Shown: piece by piece, positions 2,156 to 55,498 of the stretch
Layout: each line of letters begins with the position of its first letter
Position numbering within the stretch: position 1 is the stretch's first letter
DNA from: an uncultured Pseudomonadales bacterium
Lineage (GTDB): Bacteria > Patescibacteriota > Microgenomatia > UBA1400 > PJMF01
Direction: 5' to 3'
Length of the DNA: 64,000 nt
Assembly (NCBI GenBank): GCA_964583795.1
Contig: CAZOWX010000003.1
Location: 23,978-87,977, forward strand
Notes under the pieces: generated by a model
Told to the model about the DNA's origin: nothing
Seen by the model: only the letters and a program-made list of their open reading frames with translations
Database searches by the model: none
Translations under genes and position numbers: made by a program

Positions 2156-2659
2156 TTAGCTCTTTTGTTGTTTGCAATACAGATCGGGCAAGATTGAACG
2201 ACTAGGTCTCTCTGGATCGACATAGATCACTACTTCACCACCCTCATTCATCTGTTTAGGAACCGGCAAGCAGTATTCAATTCCAGTGTACTGTTGCCCA
2301 TTAAACGAATAGTTATAAACGATGCCCCACCGATGAATTTGAGAAAAAATTGATATTGGTGTGACAATAAAACCCGATTGCGTGATCTTTCCCATGAGTT
2401 CTATATGGTGAGTGAAAAAATACTGTTTTTGCTTGATATTGCGATAAATAGGTAGTAAACCAAGAAGTGGAATAAACAAAAGTAAGAGGAGGGGACTGAA
2501 TGGATTTCCTTTATCTATCTCTGGAGAGGTTGTAAGCACATAGATATATGAAACCAAAAAGCTCAATGATTGAAAGGAAAAGATCGCCAAAAGACCAGCG
2601 ATCGTAGCAGTCACTAGATTTTTTGAAAAATAAAGCTCAATCGAAAATTTTCTTTCCAT
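2156..2659 (-). CDS. DUF3592-like two-TM membrane protein (paralog 1)
   Basis: N-terminal MERKFSIE, two TM helices, C-terminal beta region ending ...VVIYVDPERPSRSILPDLYC. It is the tandem paralog of the adjacent gene. Confidence 0.55.
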   Translation of the reverse strand: MERKFSIELYFSKNLVTATIAGLLAIFSFQSLSFLVSYIYVLTTSPEIDKGNPFSPLLLLLFIPLLGLLPIYRNIKQKQYFFTHHIELMGKITQSGFIVTPISIFSQIHRWGIVYNYSFNGQQYTGIEYCLPVPKQMNEGGEVVIYVDPERPSRSILPDLYCKQQKS

Positions 2660-2661
2660 AG

Positions 2662-3180
2662 CTATCCATTGCTCGAATTTTGGTTGTGATTGTTGGGTTT
2701 ACAATACAAATCAGGCAAGATTGATCGATCTGGTTTTTCTGGGTTGAGATAGACCGCCACTTCATCACCAACTTTAAGTTCCTTTGGTATTGGCGCTATG
2801 TATGTAACGCCCATATATTCTTGACCGTTGTACGAATAGGTATAACGAATTCCATGTGTGGGTGAATCTGAAAGGACATCAACCAGTGATCCGATGTATC
2901 CTGTTTGTGTTATTTTTCCAGTAACTTCAGCATGATGTTGAAAGAATTTTTTTGTGTTTCGAATACCTATCCAGACAACCAAGAGTAGAACATAGGGAAT
3001 CAAAATCCAAAGCATTTGGACACTCAAATGAAAGCTTCTTCGTTCAGAAATGAGGAACGTGATTCCGAAAATTAATCCTATTACAAAAAACTGTGCAGCA
3101 AATATGATCCCCAAAACAGCAAGAAATGCAGCAGGAAGGTTTGATTTAAAGTATTGTTCAATCGAGAATTGTCTTTCCAT
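2662..3180 (-). CDS. DUF3592-like two-TM membrane protein (paralog 2)
   Basis: MERQFSIE... and ...VAVYLNPEKPDRSILPDLYC. It shares conserved blocks with 2156-2659, including the N-terminal MER(K/Q)FSIE motif and the C-terminal RSILPDLYCK. Confidence 0.55.
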   Translation of the reverse strand: MERQFSIEQYFKSNLPAAFLAVLGIIFAAQFFVIGLIFGITFLISERRSFHLSVQMLWILIPYVLLLVVWIGIRNTKKFFQHHAEVTGKITQTGYIGSLVDVLSDSPTHGIRYTYSYNGQEYMGVTYIAPIPKELKVGDEVAVYLNPEKPDRSILPDLYCKPNNHNQNSSNG

Positions 3181-3385: not shown

Positions 3386-5128
3386 ATGTCTTGGTATCGT
3401 ACCTACCGGCCACAAACAGTCAGCGCACTTCATATTGATAGTGTCCGAGAGAGTTTGCAAAAAATGCTTCAGTCTGGGAACCTCCCTCAGGCGCTCCTAT
3501 TTTCTGGGCCAAAAGGAACAGGAAAAACCTCAAGCGCTCGGATCATTGCCAAAGTACTCAACTGTGAACACAATGCCAAGCACGAGGCTGGCAAACCGTG
3601 GAAAGAACCATGTAATACTTGTGAGTTGTGTGTACTGATTACCAAAGGTTCGGCACTGAATGTCGTGGAGATGGATGGCGCGAGCAATCGGCGCATCGAT
3701 GATATTCGTGCACTCAAAGAGCGTCTGTATCTTCCTCCGTCGCAGGGACAGAAAGTGGTGTACATCATCGATGAAGTGCACATGTTGACCAAAGAAGCCT
3801 TCAATGCGCTTTTGAAAATGTTGGAGGAGCCACCAGAACATGTGGTGTTCATTTTTGCTACGACCGACCCGCAAAAGATTCCAGAAACGGTCATTTCTCG
3901 TGCGACCAGAGTGCAGTTTACCAAAGCATCCGTGTCAGAATTGGCCAAATCACTGCAAGAAATATCAAAAAAAGAAAAAATTGAGGTTGACCAACAAAGC
4001 CTCGAACTTATCGCCCAGAGTGCCGATGGCAGTTTTCGCGACGCTGTGAAGCTATTCGAGCAGTTAGTGAGCAGAGCGAAAGCAGACAAGAGTGTCATAA
4101 ACACGCAATGGGTAGAGAATGTTCTTTCGACTGTTTCGAGCGATGGGGTAGTGAAATTATTGCAAAGCATTTTAGCCAAAGACGAAAAAGCAGTGGTAGC
4201 CTATTTTCAAACCATTCGCTCGCAAAACGTGGAAGCGACAGTGATTCACAAGCAGTTGCTCGCTTTTTTACACACAGAGCTGATCAAAGCGCTCACAAGC
4301 AGCGAGGAACCGTTTACCCGCAAAGAGGTGTTGCTGTATTTGCTCAAACAATTTAGCGGCGTGGATATCCCCCAGTTGCATCCGTTCCCATTGTTACCGC
4401 TAGAGCTATGCGCAATTGAAATGGTGCTCAAAAGCAAAGAAAAAGATCGAACTGGCGGAGCAAATAGCAATAGTGTAAAAAATACAAAACACGAAGAAAA
4501 TGCGAAACTTGATAAAGTTGAAAGTCCCCCTCCTTCGTCCCGCAGTGCGGGAAAATTACAACTTGATCATCAGTCAGGTTTCCATTCAAGTGACTTCGGC
4601 GGGCAAAGTAAGTTGCAAGTTGTAAGTAATAAACAGGATGAAAACAATGATACTGTTTCTGATGCTGTTACGACGTTCGATATTTCTGAAGATTTTGCAG
4701 CTGATGATTCTCTTGTCAGTACTGAGTCTGCTGCGATGAAACCAGAATTCAACGATGCGACGGTAGAAGTTATTGAGTCAACATCAAACCAAGCGGATGG
4801 TTCTTTAGTTGGTCAAAAATGGCAGGAGTTATTGAAAATGATTGGAAAACATAACTTGTCTCTTGAAGCTATTTTACGCAGTGCCCGGTTTGCCAAGGGT
4901 GAACTCGGTCGAGCAACGATCAACGTGTTTTACTCATTTCACAAAGAACAGTTGGAGTTGCAGCGTTACCGAAACATTGTTGAACAAGCCATTTTTGAGT
5001 TACTTGGTGGACGTGTGCAGTTTGAGTATATCCTATCCCAGCCTCAGTCATCACAAGCCTCCGATGATAACGTTCGGGGGAATGTTGATAAAGAGTTTGT
5101 GAGCACGATTGAGGATGCACTGCTTTAG
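3386..5128 (+). CDS. dnaX: DNA polymerase III subunit gamma/tau
   Basis: Walker A GPKGTGKTS, zinc module CNTCELC, DEVHML box. A low-complexity linker carries an in-frame repeat insertion. Confidence 0.9.
   Translation: MSWYRTYRPQTVSALHIDSVRESLQKMLQSGNLPQALLFSGPKGTGKTSSARIIAKVLNCEHNAKHEAGKPWKEPCNTCELCVLITKGSALNVVEMDGASNRRIDDIRALKERLYLPPSQGQKVVYIIDEVHMLTKEAFNALLKMLEEPPEHVVFIFATTDPQKIPETVISRATRVQFTKASVSELAKSLQEISKKEKIEVDQQSLELIAQSADGSFRDAVKLFEQLVSRAKADKSVINTQWVENVLSTVSSDGVVKLLQSILAKDEKAVVAYFQTIRSQNVEATVIHKQLLAFLHTELIKALTSSEEPFTRKEVLLYLLKQFSGVDIPQLHPFPLLPLELCAIEMVLKSKEKDRTGGANSNSVKNTKHEENAKLDKVESPPPSSRSAGKLQLDHQSGFHSSDFGGQSKLQVVSNKQDENNDTVSDAVTTFDISEDFAADDSLVSTESAAMKPEFNDATVEVIESTSNQADGSLVGQKWQELLKMIGKHNLSLEAILRSARFAKGELGRATINVFYSFHKEQLELQRYRNIVEQAIFELLGGRVQFEYILSQPQSSQASDDNVRGNVDKEFVSTIEDALL
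4523..4582 (+). repeat. Intergenic-type repeat (CCCCTCC...TCCCGCAGTGCGGGA...GTCAGGT) inserted in frame within dnaX
   Basis: Same motif architecture as the intergenic copy at 55005-55060 and the ychF insert at 43299-43355. It encodes ...PPPSSRSAGKLQLDHQSG... in the DnaX linker. Confidence 0.55.
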
Positions 5129-5139
5129 ATTGTTGATGG

Positions 5140-5180
5140 TGCCAGTCCTAGACAGGTCCGCCTTGGACGGAGAATGTGGG
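5140..5180 (+). repeat. Double-hairpin repeat, degenerate copy (TGCCAGYCCAAGGCTGG-TCCGCCTTGGGCGGAGAGTGTG family)
   Basis: Immediately 3' of the dnaX stop. Matches the copies at 13446 and 50387. Confidence 0.5.
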
Positions 5181-5242
5181 TGGTGTTTTGTTTATCTGAA
5201 AAAAAACAAATACTGCATCGAAAGTAAGAAATCTTAAATGTT

Positions 5243-5313
5243 GTCATCCTTGACCCGATGAATGAACCCGGCCAACGGCCGAGCAAAGCCATCGAGATCG
5301 AGGATCTGACTCT
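5243..5313 (+). repeat. Hairpin MITE-like repeat, long subfamily (GTCATCCTTGACCCGATGAATGAACCCGG...GAGGATC)
   Basis: Shares CGTCATCC / GGATC termini and the GACCCGATGAATGAACC core with copies at 60428, 56956 and 14305. Confidence 0.55.
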
Positions 5314-5372
5314 ACTATCTTTATAGTATTGATCTGTAAGTAGCCTTAAGAATTGATATACTTGTTTTAGAT

Positions 5373-5909
5373 ATGAAACACAAAACATCTCAAAAGTTCC
5401 CTACCTGGCTAATCATCCTTGGGGTGATTGGAGCATTTCTTTTTATTGTTGTCCCCCTAGTTGTTTTTTTTCTGATAAAACCCGTGCAAATTGTAGGAAA
5501 AGCGATGGAACCAGGTTATCGCTTAGGTGAGTACTACCTGACCGATCGACAGGCCTACCTGTTTGCCACGCCAAAGCGATCTGATGTGGTGGTTTATCGC
5601 TACAATTTTGATGGAAAAAATGTGTTGATTATTTCTCGAGTTATTGGACTACCCGGTGATCGTATTGAAACAAAAAATGGTGTTGTGTGGATCAACGGAC
5701 AAAAGTTTGATGAACCATATCTTGAAGCAAATACAAAAACGACCATTGCGGGTCAGGATTTTAATCGAATTTTGTCTGATCAGGAGTACTTTGTATTGGG
5801 AGATAATCGAGAGCACAGTATGGATTCCAGAAAAAATGGCCCGATTAAGCAAAGTGATATCAAAGGAAAAGTCACGACTCGATACTGGCCAATTGAGAGA
5901 GTTGAGTAG
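5373..5909 (+). CDS. lepB: Signal peptidase I (S26) homolog with substituted catalytic dyad
   Basis: N-terminal TM anchor. Box C RSDVVVYRY, box D RVIGLPGD and box E GDNREHSMDSR are conserved. Box B reads GKAMEPG (Ala where Ser is expected) and box D is preceded by Ser where Lys is expected. Confidence 0.75.
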   Translation: MKHKTSQKFPTWLIILGVIGAFLFIVVPLVVFFLIKPVQIVGKAMEPGYRLGEYYLTDRQAYLFATPKRSDVVVYRYNFDGKNVLIISRVIGLPGDRIETKNGVVWINGQKFDEPYLEANTKTTIAGQDFNRILSDQEYFVLGDNREHSMDSRKNGPIKQSDIKGKVTTRYWPIERVE

Positions 5910-6070
5910 TGTACTATGTTATCGTGCTGGTGTTGTAAATTGATTAGTGAGACTTGTATCGTCTGTCAACTTTTGCCTTTTTACCTTTGACTTTTAACCT
6001 TTCCAACTTAAGTGTGACAACCCGGTACAATTTGATATAATCGACAAAATAGCGAAAGCGAAAGGACCGT

Positions 6071-6358
6071 ATGGCAGGTAACCCATTTAAAGCACTTGGC
6101 GATCTGAATCAACTGCGCAAGCAAGCACAGCAGATGCAAAAAGATTTAGCTGCAGAAGAAATAACCGTACAACGTGGTGACATTGTGGTGGTCATTAGCG
6201 GTGATCAAAAAATTCGTCAATTTAGTGTCCAGGGAATTACTTCTCAAGATGCTATTGATGTACTCAACGAAGCAATCAAGAAATCACAAGAGTTAGCCGC
6301 AAAGAAACTTCAATCCATGACTGGTGGTCTTGGTGGACTAATGGGACAAGGGAAGTAA
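6071..6358 (+). CDS. ybaB: Nucleoid-associated protein YbaB/EbfC
   Basis: 95 aa, MAGNPFKALGDLNQLRKQAQQMQKDL... typical of the YbaB family. The dnaX-ybaB-recR neighbourhood is preserved but interrupted by other genes. Confidence 0.85.
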   Translation: MAGNPFKALGDLNQLRKQAQQMQKDLAAEEITVQRGDIVVVISGDQKIRQFSVQGITSQDAIDVLNEAIKKSQELAAKKLQSMTGGLGGLMGQGK

Positions 6359-6407
6359 TCTTTAGGTGTCAGAGCGTCGGGTTTCAGGAGTCAGTGGCTA
6401 CCACTTT

Positions 6408-6468
6408 CGTCATCCTGAACAGTCTAGTGAGCTTGCGAACGAGACGGATTCAGGATCTAATGTCAGAA
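6408..6468 (+). repeat. Hairpin MITE-like repeat (CGTCATCCTGAACAGTCTAGTGAGC...GATTCAGGATCTAATGTCAGAA)
   Basis: Stem ATCCTGAA / TTCAGGAT. Related to the copies at 24577 and 55436. Confidence 0.55.
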
Positions 6469-29998: not shown

Positions 29999-30667
29999 TT
30001 ATTGCCCCGCTGACTTTTTCATCATCTCTTCAAATTGCTGTTTTTCTTCTGCACTCATTCCCTCTTGTGCACTTTCTGCTGCATTTTTCATCATGACACT
30101 AAAATCAGCAAACTTGACGTTAGCTGGTGGTACAAACTCACTGTCACTAACGATTGTCGGATTACAATCTAGTTTCATGCCTTCATTTTCCAGTTTTTCG
30201 ATTTCTTCTTCACTGGAGAAATCAGGAGTCTGAGGGGCATTTTTGATCGCGTCCTTTGCTTGATCTGCAGATTTCTTCTGCTCTTCTTCAGATGGGATGG
30301 CCATTTTGAAGCCTTCATTTTTGGTAGAGTCCCAAGTGTACAGGAAAGACTCGTCTACGATCATCTCACCGGTGGTCGCTTTCTGATCATTACTTGTAAC
30401 GATCCCTGACATGTGCATTTTTTTACCTTTGGCAACATACTGCGAGGTAGTGTTGGTTTTAGTGTCGGTCATAGTGCATTTCAGTCCACCACCAACTTTC
30501 AGTGCATCAGTCCAACTTTTGAACTTATTTGTGTCTGAATTTTGTGCTGCAGTAGTTGGTGTTTGATCTTGAGTGGGAGTCGTGGTGGTAGTAGTTGATT
30601 TGGAAGTACAGCCAGCTAACACTACTGAGCCGACAAAAACGCTGGTAATGAGCGCGTATTTTTTCAT
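29999..30667 (-). CDS. Lipoprotein (hypothetical)
   Basis: Lipobox LAGC after the signal peptide MKKYALITSVFVGSVVLAGC. T/Q-rich linker. The ORF start was trimmed to MKKYA. Confidence 0.6.
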   Translation of the reverse strand: MKKYALITSVFVGSVVLAGCTSKSTTTTTTPTQDQTPTTAAQNSDTNKFKSWTDALKVGGGLKCTMTDTKTNTTSQYVAKGKKMHMSGIVTSNDQKATTGEMIVDESFLYTWDSTKNEGFKMAIPSEEEQKKSADQAKDAIKNAPQTPDFSSEEEIEKLENEGMKLDCNPTIVSDSEFVPPANVKFADFSVMMKNAAESAQEGMSAEEKQQFEEMMKKSAGQ

Positions 30668-30726
30668 AAATGACCCTTCAAAAATAATTGTTATTATTAG
30701 ACTTGTCAAATTATAGCAGATCAAAG

Positions 30727-38019: not shown

Positions 38020-38751
38020 ATGAAAATTTTACTCAGCAGCATAATAACAACTACTGACGATGGCGTAGTTGGTAGTAAAGCAACTAATTTAGCCCAATTG
38101 AATGATTTTGGTTTTATTGTCCCGTCATTTTTCGTTATTGAATTAGATTTAGGTGAAAAAGTTTCTCAATATAAAGATGAAATTCTTAAGCAGTTTGACA
38201 CGCTTCGCAGTGATGAAGTATCGGTGCGTAGTAGCTCTAGCGTTGAGGACTCAAAAAATTATAGCTTTGCCGGATTGTTTGATACTTACCTACATGTAAC
38301 AAGAGACCAAGTAATAGAAAAAATCGAAGCCTGTTTTGCTGCGGTTCGCAATCAACGGGTGGAGGAGTACTGCAAAGTAAATGGTATTGATGCTGACCTA
38401 GTCAAGATGGCAGTTATTGTGCAGACCATGATAAGTGCAGAGTATAGCGGTGTGTGTTTTACCAAAAATCCAGTGACCAATAACGAGAGTGAAATTATGA
38501 TAGAGGTAGCACAGGGGGATGGAGAGAACGTGGTAGCAGGAATTGTGACTCCGGATAATTTTGTGATTCAAAAAAATGACCTCACTTTCACCAATGAAAG
38601 TGCCAACTTGCCAGAATCAAAAACAGTTGCACAGCAAGTTGCATCAATCGCGAAAGAAATCGAGCACAAGTTTGGCTATTTTGCCGATATCGAGTGGTGT
38701 TTTAAGGATGGAGTGGTGTTTGTCTTGCAGGTGCGGCCGATTACGAGTTAG
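38020..38751 (+). CDS. PEP-utilizing enzyme N-terminal ATP-grasp (PPDK_N) domain protein, stand-alone
   Basis: GSKATNLAQL, VRSSSSVEDSKNYSFAGLFDTYL and DIEWCFKDGVVFVLQVRPIT match the nucleotide-binding domain of PEP synthase and rifampin phosphotransferase. Confidence 0.8.
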   Translation: MKILLSSIITTTDDGVVGSKATNLAQLNDFGFIVPSFFVIELDLGEKVSQYKDEILKQFDTLRSDEVSVRSSSSVEDSKNYSFAGLFDTYLHVTRDQVIEKIEACFAAVRNQRVEEYCKVNGIDADLVKMAVIVQTMISAEYSGVCFTKNPVTNNESEIMIEVAQGDGENVVAGIVTPDNFVIQKNDLTFTNESANLPESKTVAQQVASIAKEIEHKFGYFADIEWCFKDGVVFVLQVRPITS

Positions 38752-39436: not shown

Positions 39437-40471
39437 TTAAATGATTGTAACAGTGCCTTTTTCTCCGTCAATTTCCACTTCCTGACCATTTTTCAGGATT
39501 TCTGTGGCGCTGTGGGTGCCAACAACACAAGGAATTTTCATTTCACGCGCGATAATGGCAGCATGACTCAGGATCCCACCTTCGTCAGTAATAATACCTG
39601 AGGCTTTATGACACGCGATGGCAAGTTTGGGTTGGGTGCTTTCGCTGACTAATATGGCACCATGGGGCATTTTGGCCATGCACTCTTCTACATTTTGATT
39701 AGCAAGTGAGACGACATAGACTTTACCGCGAATGATGCCTTTACTGGCACCGAGTCCAGCTAATTGACTTACTATCTTTGAAGAGTTTGGCATGAGTTTC
39801 TGGAAGTTTTTTCGAGCTGTTTCACCATAAACGTACTGAAGTGAGCCGTCTGGATTTTTGGTGATTAGAAAATGGGATTTGCGCTCTACTAGTTGTGCTG
39901 AAGTGATTGGGGCAAGTGATAAGTGCAGGATTTCGTCAAAGTTTAAAAACTGGACATCACTTTTGGTGAGCTGATGTTGTTTGCCAATGAGTGTGGCAAC
40001 TTCATACAAATCTTCTGTTGCCAACACACACGTTTCAATAAATTGCAGGCGAAACTCTCCCACGATTTTGATGATTTTTTCATCTTTCATAGGGTGAAGT
40101 AGCGTCGTGTGAAACTCTTCAGTGGTAAAATACAGTCGGTAACTTTCAGCAAGGACAGTGCTTAGTCTGTCAAATAATGTGGATAATTGCCGCTCATTTT
40201 CATCCACTTTCTTCACTGATGCATGTAATTGTCGACCTTGCCCGGTGAGTTTTTTAGCACTCAAGAAAAGTTCAGCAATTTTTTCTTGATTCCTCAAATG
40301 GTGGAGACCTTTTTTGGCCAAGACTGGTAGCTCTTTTTGGGCGACAAACCCTTTGACTTTATGGTTTGTGTAGTAGACAAAAGATCGTGAACCACCCCAG
40401 TACGGTAGCCAAGTGCTGATCGAAAGGACTTTATCGAGTCCATCGGTGAAGATGTGTTGGTAGGAGGACAT
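39437..40471 (-). CDS. PEP-utilizing enzyme phosphohistidine (swivel) domain protein
   Basis: C-terminal GGILSHAAIIAREMKIPCVVG...EIDGEKGTVTI is the mobile His domain. The N-terminal ~230 aa resemble the central domain of the RPH/PpsA family. Confidence 0.75.
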   Translation of the reverse strand: MSSYQHIFTDGLDKVLSISTWLPYWGGSRSFVYYTNHKVKGFVAQKELPVLAKKGLHHLRNQEKIAELFLSAKKLTGQGRQLHASVKKVDENERQLSTLFDRLSTVLAESYRLYFTTEEFHTTLLHPMKDEKIIKIVGEFRLQFIETCVLATEDLYEVATLIGKQHQLTKSDVQFLNFDEILHLSLAPITSAQLVERKSHFLITKNPDGSLQYVYGETARKNFQKLMPNSSKIVSQLAGLGASKGIIRGKVYVVSLANQNVEECMAKMPHGAILVSESTQPKLAIACHKASGIITDEGGILSHAAIIAREMKIPCVVGTHSATEILKNGQEVEIDGEKGTVTII

Positions 40472-55435: not shown

Positions 55436-55498
55436 TCTGACTTTAGATCCTGAATCCGTCTTGCTCATATCTTCGCTAGACTGTTCAGGATGACGACT
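55436..55498 (-). repeat. Hairpin MITE-like repeat, inverted orientation (TCTGACTTTAGATCCTGAATCCGTC...CTGTTCAGGATGACGAC)
   Basis: Inverted relative to 55257. Related to 6408 and 24577. Confidence 0.55.

Follow-up and report, generated by a model that had tools for sequence, protein, structure and literature searches.

Does a protein that has kept the conserved boxes of a type I signal peptidase (SPase I), though both of its catalytic residues have been exchanged, still cleave peptides, and if it does not, why is it kept? This question is raised by a gene at positions 5373..5909 (+) of a stretch of 64,000 nucleotides (the window in the following) from an uncultured, Patescibacteria-like bacterium (contig CAZOWX010000003.1). 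The coding sequence (CDS) starts with ATG, comprises 178 codons plus the stop and is recognized as S26-like from the list of open reading frames (ORFs), Pfam, TIGR02227 and an AlphaFold2 model. Its product, the S26-like or window protein, is probably a non-catalytic, peptide-binding pseudo-peptidase that is anchored in the membrane and maintained by selection.

The window protein is clearly a member of the S26 family by sequence homology and, in its predicted structure, has the β-fold of SPase I. Pfam Peptidase_S26 (PF10502) matches over profile positions 9-168 of 168 (E=1.2e-37, 129.9 bits, cutoff 22.9), and the NCBIfam model TIGR02227 (sigpep_I_bact) assigns 137.9 bits to the 178-amino-acid protein against a cutoff of 47. 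The archaeal-type model TIGR02228 (21.7 bits, cutoff 51.85) and those of the conjugative TraF/SodX subfamilies (TIGR02771, 40.6 against 100.25; TIGR02754, 24.5 against 63.25) stay below their cutoffs. Relatives with solved structures are Staphylococcus aureus SpsB, Bacillus anthracis SPase I, Enterococcus faecalis SPase I, Escherichia coli LepB and Streptococcus pyogenes SipA, with sequence matches of E=1e-19 to 3e-21 to the entries 4wvg/4wvh and of E=1e-20 to 4nv4. The AlphaFold2 model, calculated from a 27-sequence alignment with a mean predicted local distance difference test value (pLDDT) of 84.7, consists of a long N-terminal helix, residues 11-34, followed by a β-domain. A Foldseek search with this predicted model retrieved SpsB (4wvj, E=4e-10), LepB and SipA (4n31, E=3e-8) with a probability of 1.00 and no other folds. 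The helix coincides with the hydrophobic stretch WLIILGVIGAFLFIVVPLVVFFLI (5403..5474 (+)), the N-terminal transmembrane anchor which an initial interpretation of the DNA without database searches, the sequence-only reading, had pointed out. As the basic N-terminus MKHKTSQK precedes the anchor, the positive-inside rule would place the N-terminus inside and the domain outside the cell.

The Ser-Lys mechanism of SPase I is established (PMC4704075, PMC12414704), and the window protein possesses neither of the two features that make up the dyad of an active type I enzyme, the box B serine and the box D lysine. Box B (5496..5513 (+)) reads GKAMEP and is paired by HMMER with GESMDP of SpsB, while residues 41-45, VGKAM, are paired with PSGSM of the E. 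coli enzyme, which puts Ala44 (codon GCG, 5502-5504) at the position of the nucleophile, Ser36 in SpsB and Ser90 in LepB. Box D (5628..5660 (+)) reads IISRVIGLPGD and is paired with YVKRVIGVPGD of SpsB and YIKRAVGLPGD of E. coli, with Ser88 (codon TCT, 5634-5636) at the position of the general base, Lys77 in SpsB and Lys145 in LepB. Pairwise HMMER alignments (for box B to 4wvh and 1t7d), MAFFT and hmmalign agree on both positions, which were also checked at the codon level, and in the 27-sequence MAFFT alignment the columns around both sites are without gaps. The exchange of both catalytic residues, Ser to Ala and Lys to Ser, had been proposed by the sequence-only reading, with the reservation that small indels could hide a Ser/Lys or Ser/His pair; the exchange stands, no such pair emerges, and an alignment shift that would restore one is ruled out by the agreement of the three methods and the lack of gaps near the sites. 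The two columns are otherwise highly conserved, with Ser in 118 and Lys in 115 of the sequences when the query is taken together with its 120 best word-index homologs.

The remaining boxes are preserved, as had likewise been read from the sequence. Box C, RSDVVVYRY (5577..5603 (+)), which includes Val74, aligns with SpsB, the core of box D, RVIGLPGD, is present, and box E, GDNREHSMDSR (5799..5831 (+)), is wholly canonical in the alignments. Among the same 121 sequences the Gly, Asp, Asn, Arg and Asp columns of box E are invariant and its Ser columns are conserved in 120 and 119 of 121, the former being the column of Ser149, which we take to be the equivalent of LepB Ser278; the last Arg column holds Arg in 110 and His in 11. 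Canonical SPases such as LepB, SpsB and B. anthracis SPase I thus share with the window protein the order of boxes B to E, the presumed topology and the S1/S3 pocket residues, but keep the Ser nucleophile and the Lys base where the window protein has Ala and Ser. Endoplasmic reticulum (ER), archaeal and SipW-type enzymes also belong to the S26 superfamily and also have another residue at the Lys position, but they retain Ser and His (Ser-His(-Asp)), a pair that is not found in the window protein either, with Ala44 and Ser88 at these places. As judged from the alignments, Ser-Lys dyad chemistry is impossible in the window protein, and cleavage of peptides by the S26 mechanism would not be expected because Ala44 has replaced the nucleophile and Ser88 the general base.

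An enzyme might nevertheless work with a non-canonical nucleophile or base or by substrate-assisted catalysis and might even be the working signal peptidase of this lineage. The nearest relatives, addressed further below, keep Ser without Lys (Ser/Ser in P0002, Ser/Gly in P0390 and P0391), which leaves room for a Lys-independent mechanism, in many metagenomic S26 representatives Ser is accompanied by a base-position residue that is Ala, Gly, Ser or His, and no canonical lepB is found within the 64 kb. In the window protein, on the other hand, the nucleophile itself is Ala, and box B in its wider extent, IVGKAMEPGY, is devoid of Ser, Thr or Cys that could take its place. The neighbouring Lys43 is Arg in the relatives of 90% identity, and position 88 is Ser and not the His of ER/SipW-type enzymes. 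The experimental precedents point in the same direction, as SpsB S36A is the inactive form that was used for the uncomplexed crystal structure (PMC4704075) and S. aureus SpsA, likewise with Ser in place of Lys, is inactive (PMC12414704). The unusual catalytic arrangement that the sequence-only reading had offered as an option thus finds no candidate residues, and peptidase activity of this kind is hardly credible.

The residue pair is not an artefact of a single assembly. Two proteins of 183 amino acids with 90% identity, P0001 (contig L004) and P0388, come from Logan assemblies of other runs and show the same Ala/Ser pair. As the codons GCG and TCT recur in L004 and the two residues in P0388, an error in sequencing or assembly is ruled out, and so is a lepB that carries point mutations. 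The order dnaX, S26-like gene, ybaB in L004 is that of the window. Compared between window and L004, the S26-like CDS (90.5% nucleotide identity) has 51 nucleotide differences, which lead to 17 amino-acid differences, with a rate of nonsynonymous substitution (dN) of 0.056, a rate of synonymous substitution (dS) of 0.29 and a ratio of the two (omega) of 0.19. Nonsynonymous changes make up about 22 of the 51, whereas neutrality would predict 77% (binomial p=1.3e-7); the gene is kept by purifying selection. The flanking genes are 97-98% identical in the same comparison (5 nucleotide differences, dN 0.010, dS 0.05 and omega 0.19 for the 3' end of dnaX; 7 differences, dN 0.005, dS 0.10 and omega 0.04 for ybaB), so that the dS of the S26-like CDS is approximately 3-6 times theirs. 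This contrast between the CDS and its flanks points to a replacement of the allele through recombination or to a local acceleration of evolution.

On both sides the gene is surrounded by non-coding DNA of rapid turnover. The upstream intergenic arm of this island (5129..5372) cannot be aligned with L004, although dnaX is approximately 98% identical up to its stop codon, and the downstream arm (5910..6012) cannot be aligned with the approximately 240 nucleotides that L004 has there; homology resumes exactly at the ybaB promoter. Such surroundings might be expected of an evolutionary remnant, a duplicated or transferred copy of lepB that is inactive and functionless and has been acquired too recently to be disrupted. 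A dN and dS several-fold above those of the flanking genes, the clustering of substitutions at the former active site, the location inside a hypervariable inserted island and the lack of a clear Shine-Dalgarno sequence or promoter of the window copy would all fit such a history, and SpsA, too, has long been seen as a possible product of a pseudogene (PMC12414704). Decay is nevertheless difficult to reconcile with the departure from neutrality and with an uninterrupted reading frame in three strains, next to non-coding DNA so diverged that it can no longer be aligned; the preservation of the CDS inside a fast-turnover island argues against a decaying pseudogene. In addition, box E and the cleft residues remain canonical across the 49% identity to the Lys-less P0002, provided that the two proteins are related by descent. 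A remnant is therefore rather unlikely.

What, then, might be selected in a signal peptidase without its dyad? In SpsB, the substrate cleft is lined by Ile32, Met37 and Val76 in S1 and by Tyr30, Leu41 and Val66 in S3, with Val76 as the residue that bridges S1 and S3 (PMC4704075). Mapped onto the window protein, the S1 residues correspond to Ile40, Met45 and Ile87, the last being the equivalent of the bridge residue, and the S3 residues to Val38, Tyr49 and Val74. All six positions are the same in P0001 and are hydrophobic in P0002, which has Ile at 38 and 74. As the dyad is lost while box E and the cleft residues are intact, the mode of action is most likely non-catalytic. The proposal of an inactive pseudo-peptidase, put forward by the sequence-only reading as one of two options, consequently gains support from the alignments, the predicted S26 fold, the fixation of the Ala/Ser pair in independent strains and purifying selection. 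As a type II membrane protein with an N-terminal transmembrane helix and the S26 domain outside the cell, the pseudo-peptidase would bind an extended peptide of an exported protein, for example a stretch resembling the C-region of a signal peptide, and would hold or present this peptide rather than cleave it. By analogy with what has been proposed for S. pyogenes SipA, it might act as a chaperone, an assembly factor or a modulator.

Two Gram-positive proteins provide the framework for such a role. SipA has Asp/Gly in place of the dyad, has kept the cleft, is devoid of peptidase activity and indispensable for pilus polymerization (PMC4049620), and SpsA, with Asp33/Ser75, has no activity in assays and is of unclear function (PMC12414704). 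SipA (LepA; PDB 4n31, 4k8w) shares with the window protein the S26 fold, the N-terminal transmembrane anchor and the replacement of both dyad residues, and the retention of its cleft would be matched in the window protein to judge from the sequence; the window model superimposes on 4n31 with a Foldseek TM-score of 0.58-0.74 at approximately 29-30% identity. The two proteins differ in the residues that occupy the dyad positions (Asp/Gly in SipA, Ala/Ser in the window protein), in the remainder of the active site, where SipA departs from LepB (Gly272; Asn274 in the Omega subzone) while box E of the window protein is canonical, and in gene context, as the SipA gene belongs to a sortase/pilin cluster whereas the window gene is located between dnaX and ybaB. 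No sortase or pilin domain was detected among the approximately 45 window ORFs scanned, some small ORFs being outside the scan. SpsA resembles the window protein as a short homolog of the Gram-positive SPase I type with a single transmembrane anchor and the change of Lys to Ser, but has Asp and not Ala at the position of the nucleophile and a host of another phylum. As far as can be inferred from these differences in dyad, gene context and phylum, the window protein would be analogous to SipA and SpsA and not their ortholog, and its dyad was lost independently of that of SipA, since the nearest sequence relatives are LepBs of the Patescibacteria type. Inactive SPase-I-like proteins are thus a known kind, with SipA and SpsA as precedents, and the window protein is best read as a new and independent example.

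Anchored in the membrane like active SPases and equipped with their cleft residues, the window protein should encounter their substrates where these enzymes do, and could therefore be a regulator or partner of an active signal peptidase or of Sec/YidC that competes for cleavage sites or forms a heteromer. In other genomes dead paralogs often adjoin active ones, and spsA is located directly beside the active spsB. In the window no active paralog is adjacent: the S26-like gene is the sole LepB-like gene of the 64 kb, as had been stated by the sequence-only reading, with no second S26-like ORF in tblastn or in a six-frame hmmsearch with filters off. The S26 systems compared provide no evidence for heteromers, and sequence data cannot separate a regulator from a peptide-binding pseudo-peptidase. 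A regulatory role is unlikely.

Signal peptides are made by the organism itself. A polysaccharide lyase (PF14099; 31771-32835 (+)) starts with MIKRFFFRSILLTLLLVAGAIFVAKHSVVAAQA/NT, a textbook Sec signal peptide ending in VVAAQA/NT, and the ORF next to it (29999-30724 (-)) has the lipobox LAGC after an internal Met. To judge by such sequences, both SPase I and SPase II would find ordinary substrates in this organism. Those of SPase I are of the classical type, so that an active enzyme of this kind is expected elsewhere in the genome.

Several points weigh against the view that a peptide-binding pseudo-peptidase is maintained here. The active LepB elsewhere in the genome is assumed, and the retention of a cleft for Ala-X-Ala is deduced from sequence mapping. 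The S26-like gene evolves approximately 4-5 times faster than the flanking genes, and 5 of the 17 replacements lie close to where the active site used to be, within residues 41-52 (Fisher p=0.002), a cluster that could reflect relaxed constraint on the entrance of the cleft. In the raw sequence there is no obvious Shine-Dalgarno sequence before the ATG of the window, where L004 has AGGAG. Finally, there is no conserved partner gene that would hint at a client, the neighbours dnaX and ybaB being housekeeping genes, and the gene context of P0002 is not that of the window gene.

In which order the two catalytic residues were lost can be addressed with the nearest relatives. When 1.84 billion cluster representatives were scanned exhaustively with HMMER, only P0001 and P0002 scored above 140 bits. 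P0002 is 49% identical to the window protein and reads GSSMNP and IISRVIGLPGE, that is Ser/Ser, with the nucleophile kept and Lys replaced by Ser; its gene is found on a contig of 36.8% GC content after a TPR protein and two proteins without a Pfam match. Two further relatives, added by a profile search, have kept Ser and possess Gly at the Lys position: P0390 (4255-4755 (-) of contig L086), in which box E is degraded to ADNRPYAEDSR, and P0391 (6774-7298 (+) of contig L089). Both are encoded at a conserved, syntenic place within a few kb of ybeY-dnaX on related Patescibacteria-like contigs, and both have a DUF4258 gene nearby. A conserved operon partner was rejected, as the window gene, P0002 and the Ser/Gly relatives are each found in different contexts. 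In a neighbour-joining tree calculated without the two catalytic columns, P0002, P0390 and P0391 group with the query, neighbour-joining being a weak method by which degenerate sequences may be drawn together through long-branch attraction. If these proteins are related by descent, the simplest history would be that Lys was lost first and Ser later on the branch of the window protein, because the nearest relatives, one with Ser/Ser and two with Ser/Gly, are also without Lys. In a scan of GTDB species representatives, matches did not exceed 45% identity and were mostly canonical LepBs of Patescibacteria and Chloroflexota. The canonical LepB P0392, considered as the enzyme of the same lineage, was uninformative, coming from unrelated samples and a different context.

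The same relatives would allow a different view, in which the Lys-less proteins with Ser/Gly, Ser/Ser and Ala/Ser form a clade that is the own SPase line of these organisms and either works without Lys or has ceded its function to an unrelated enzyme. Removal of Ala-X-Ala signal peptides would in that case need no Ser-Lys SPase I in this organism, and many metagenomic S26 representatives would share an unrecognized function, be it as enzymes independent of Lys or as pseudo-enzymes. This is a very doubtful proposition.

Absence of the dyad is clearly a recurrent phenomenon among S26 domains. With the query excluded, dyads other than Ser/Lys were found in 5 of the 120 word-index matches, in 3 of 114 profile matches and in 10 of 95 S26 ORFs from L001-L004, L085 and 80 GTDB loci. 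Among the 148 nearest 50%-cluster representatives other than P0001 and P0002, as many as 51 are non-canonical, a biased count, inflated because a query that itself has Ala and Ser draws in such matches and because clustering at 50% over-represents fast-evolving proteins, which is still a hint that the literature underestimates by far the frequency of dead or altered S26 domains in environmental bacteria. The dyad types in these 148 representatives (P0121-P0266 set) include Ala/Lys, Ser/Ser, Ser/Ala, Ser/Gly, Ser/His and others, and several of the non-canonical representatives fall into neighbour-joining clades of 19 and 7. In many the S26 domain forms the C-terminal part of a protein of 300-340 amino acids, and in P0121 two S26 domains are arranged in tandem, the first of them with Ala/Lys. 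Degenerate S26 paralogs near canonical ones are found at the loci L058, L068 and L070.

Returning to the window pseudo-peptidase, its gene has as neighbours dnaX, ybaB, pfkB and ahcY. The dnaX gene (DNA polymerase III gamma/tau, 3386..5128 (+), Pfam) and ybaB/ebfC (6071..6358 (+), Pfam PF02575) form the left and right flank of an insertion. In three related contigs (L086, L087/L088 and L089), with DnaX proteins of 62-65% identity, dnaX is directly followed by ybaB, and the order ybaB, pfkB, ahcY, HAD is shared downstream, extended by DUF5671 and recR in L086 and L087, the two longer contigs. As dnaX and ybaB are adjacent there, the S26-like gene is an insertion specific to the lineage of the window. 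A strong sigma-70-like promoter precedes ybaB (6014..6041 (+); GTGACA, a 16-nucleotide spacer and TG-TATAAT, 11/12) and is identical in L004, so that transcription of ybaB need not depend on that of the S26-like gene. Upstream of the latter, the raw sequence holds a possible extended -10 element, TGaTATACT, at approximately 5354-5363; a promoter scan gave nothing of at least 9/12 within 5129..5372. A regulatory RNA in these 244 nucleotides was rejected, with no Rfam match and an RNA fold z-score of -0.65. Base composition was uninformative with respect to a foreign origin, as the GC content of the gene (0.406) and that of its third codon positions (0.369) are within the range of the neighbours, and membership of a defence system was rejected because there was no PADLOC match.

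Families of intergenic repeats of 25-60 nucleotides are scattered through the window (5243-5271; 14347-14374 (-); 57005-57030 (-); 60430-60454 (+); also 6407-6467 and 55436-55496 (-)). One repeat family holds the hairpin ATCCTGAA...TTCAGGAT, and a related element is present downstream of the S26-like gene of L004, with none at that place in the window. These repeats may be small mobile or terminator-like elements that feed the turnover of the intergenic DNA of the island. Immediately upstream of dnaX, tandem paralogous DUF3592 membrane proteins are encoded (2156-2659 (-) and 2662-3180 (-)), in a position that is occupied by a ybeY/S21 block in the related contigs. Further away, the PPDK_N domain and the PEP-utilizers mobile domain, as in pyruvate phosphate dikinase or PEP synthase, are found in separate ORFs (38020-38751 (+) and 39437-40471 (-)), which differ in strand and are set apart by a histidine phosphatase gene. 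Across the whole 64 kb neither a tRNA gene nor an Rfam family at the gathering threshold was detected. Approximately 15 of the approximately 45 scanned window ORFs, about a third, have no Pfam match, and a high share of such ORFs is typical of genomes of the candidate phyla radiation (CPR). Together with the homologs of the window's DnaX, these ORFs point to a Patescibacteria (CPR)-like organism.

For the annotation of reduced genomes the consequences are direct. A name given from the TIGR02227 score alone, 138 bits against an equivalog cutoff of 47, would call the window protein an active LepB, and such misnaming matters for inferences on the secretome and on essential genes. For the S26 family, a pseudo-signal-peptidase that is maintained by selection in an uncultured Patescibacteria-like lineage would stand as an independent case beside SipA and SpsA, the two studied Gram-positive ones. 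If its relatives are indeed related by descent, they suggest a stepwise path along which a signal peptidase first loses its Lys, with scaffold and cleft kept, and only later its Ser.

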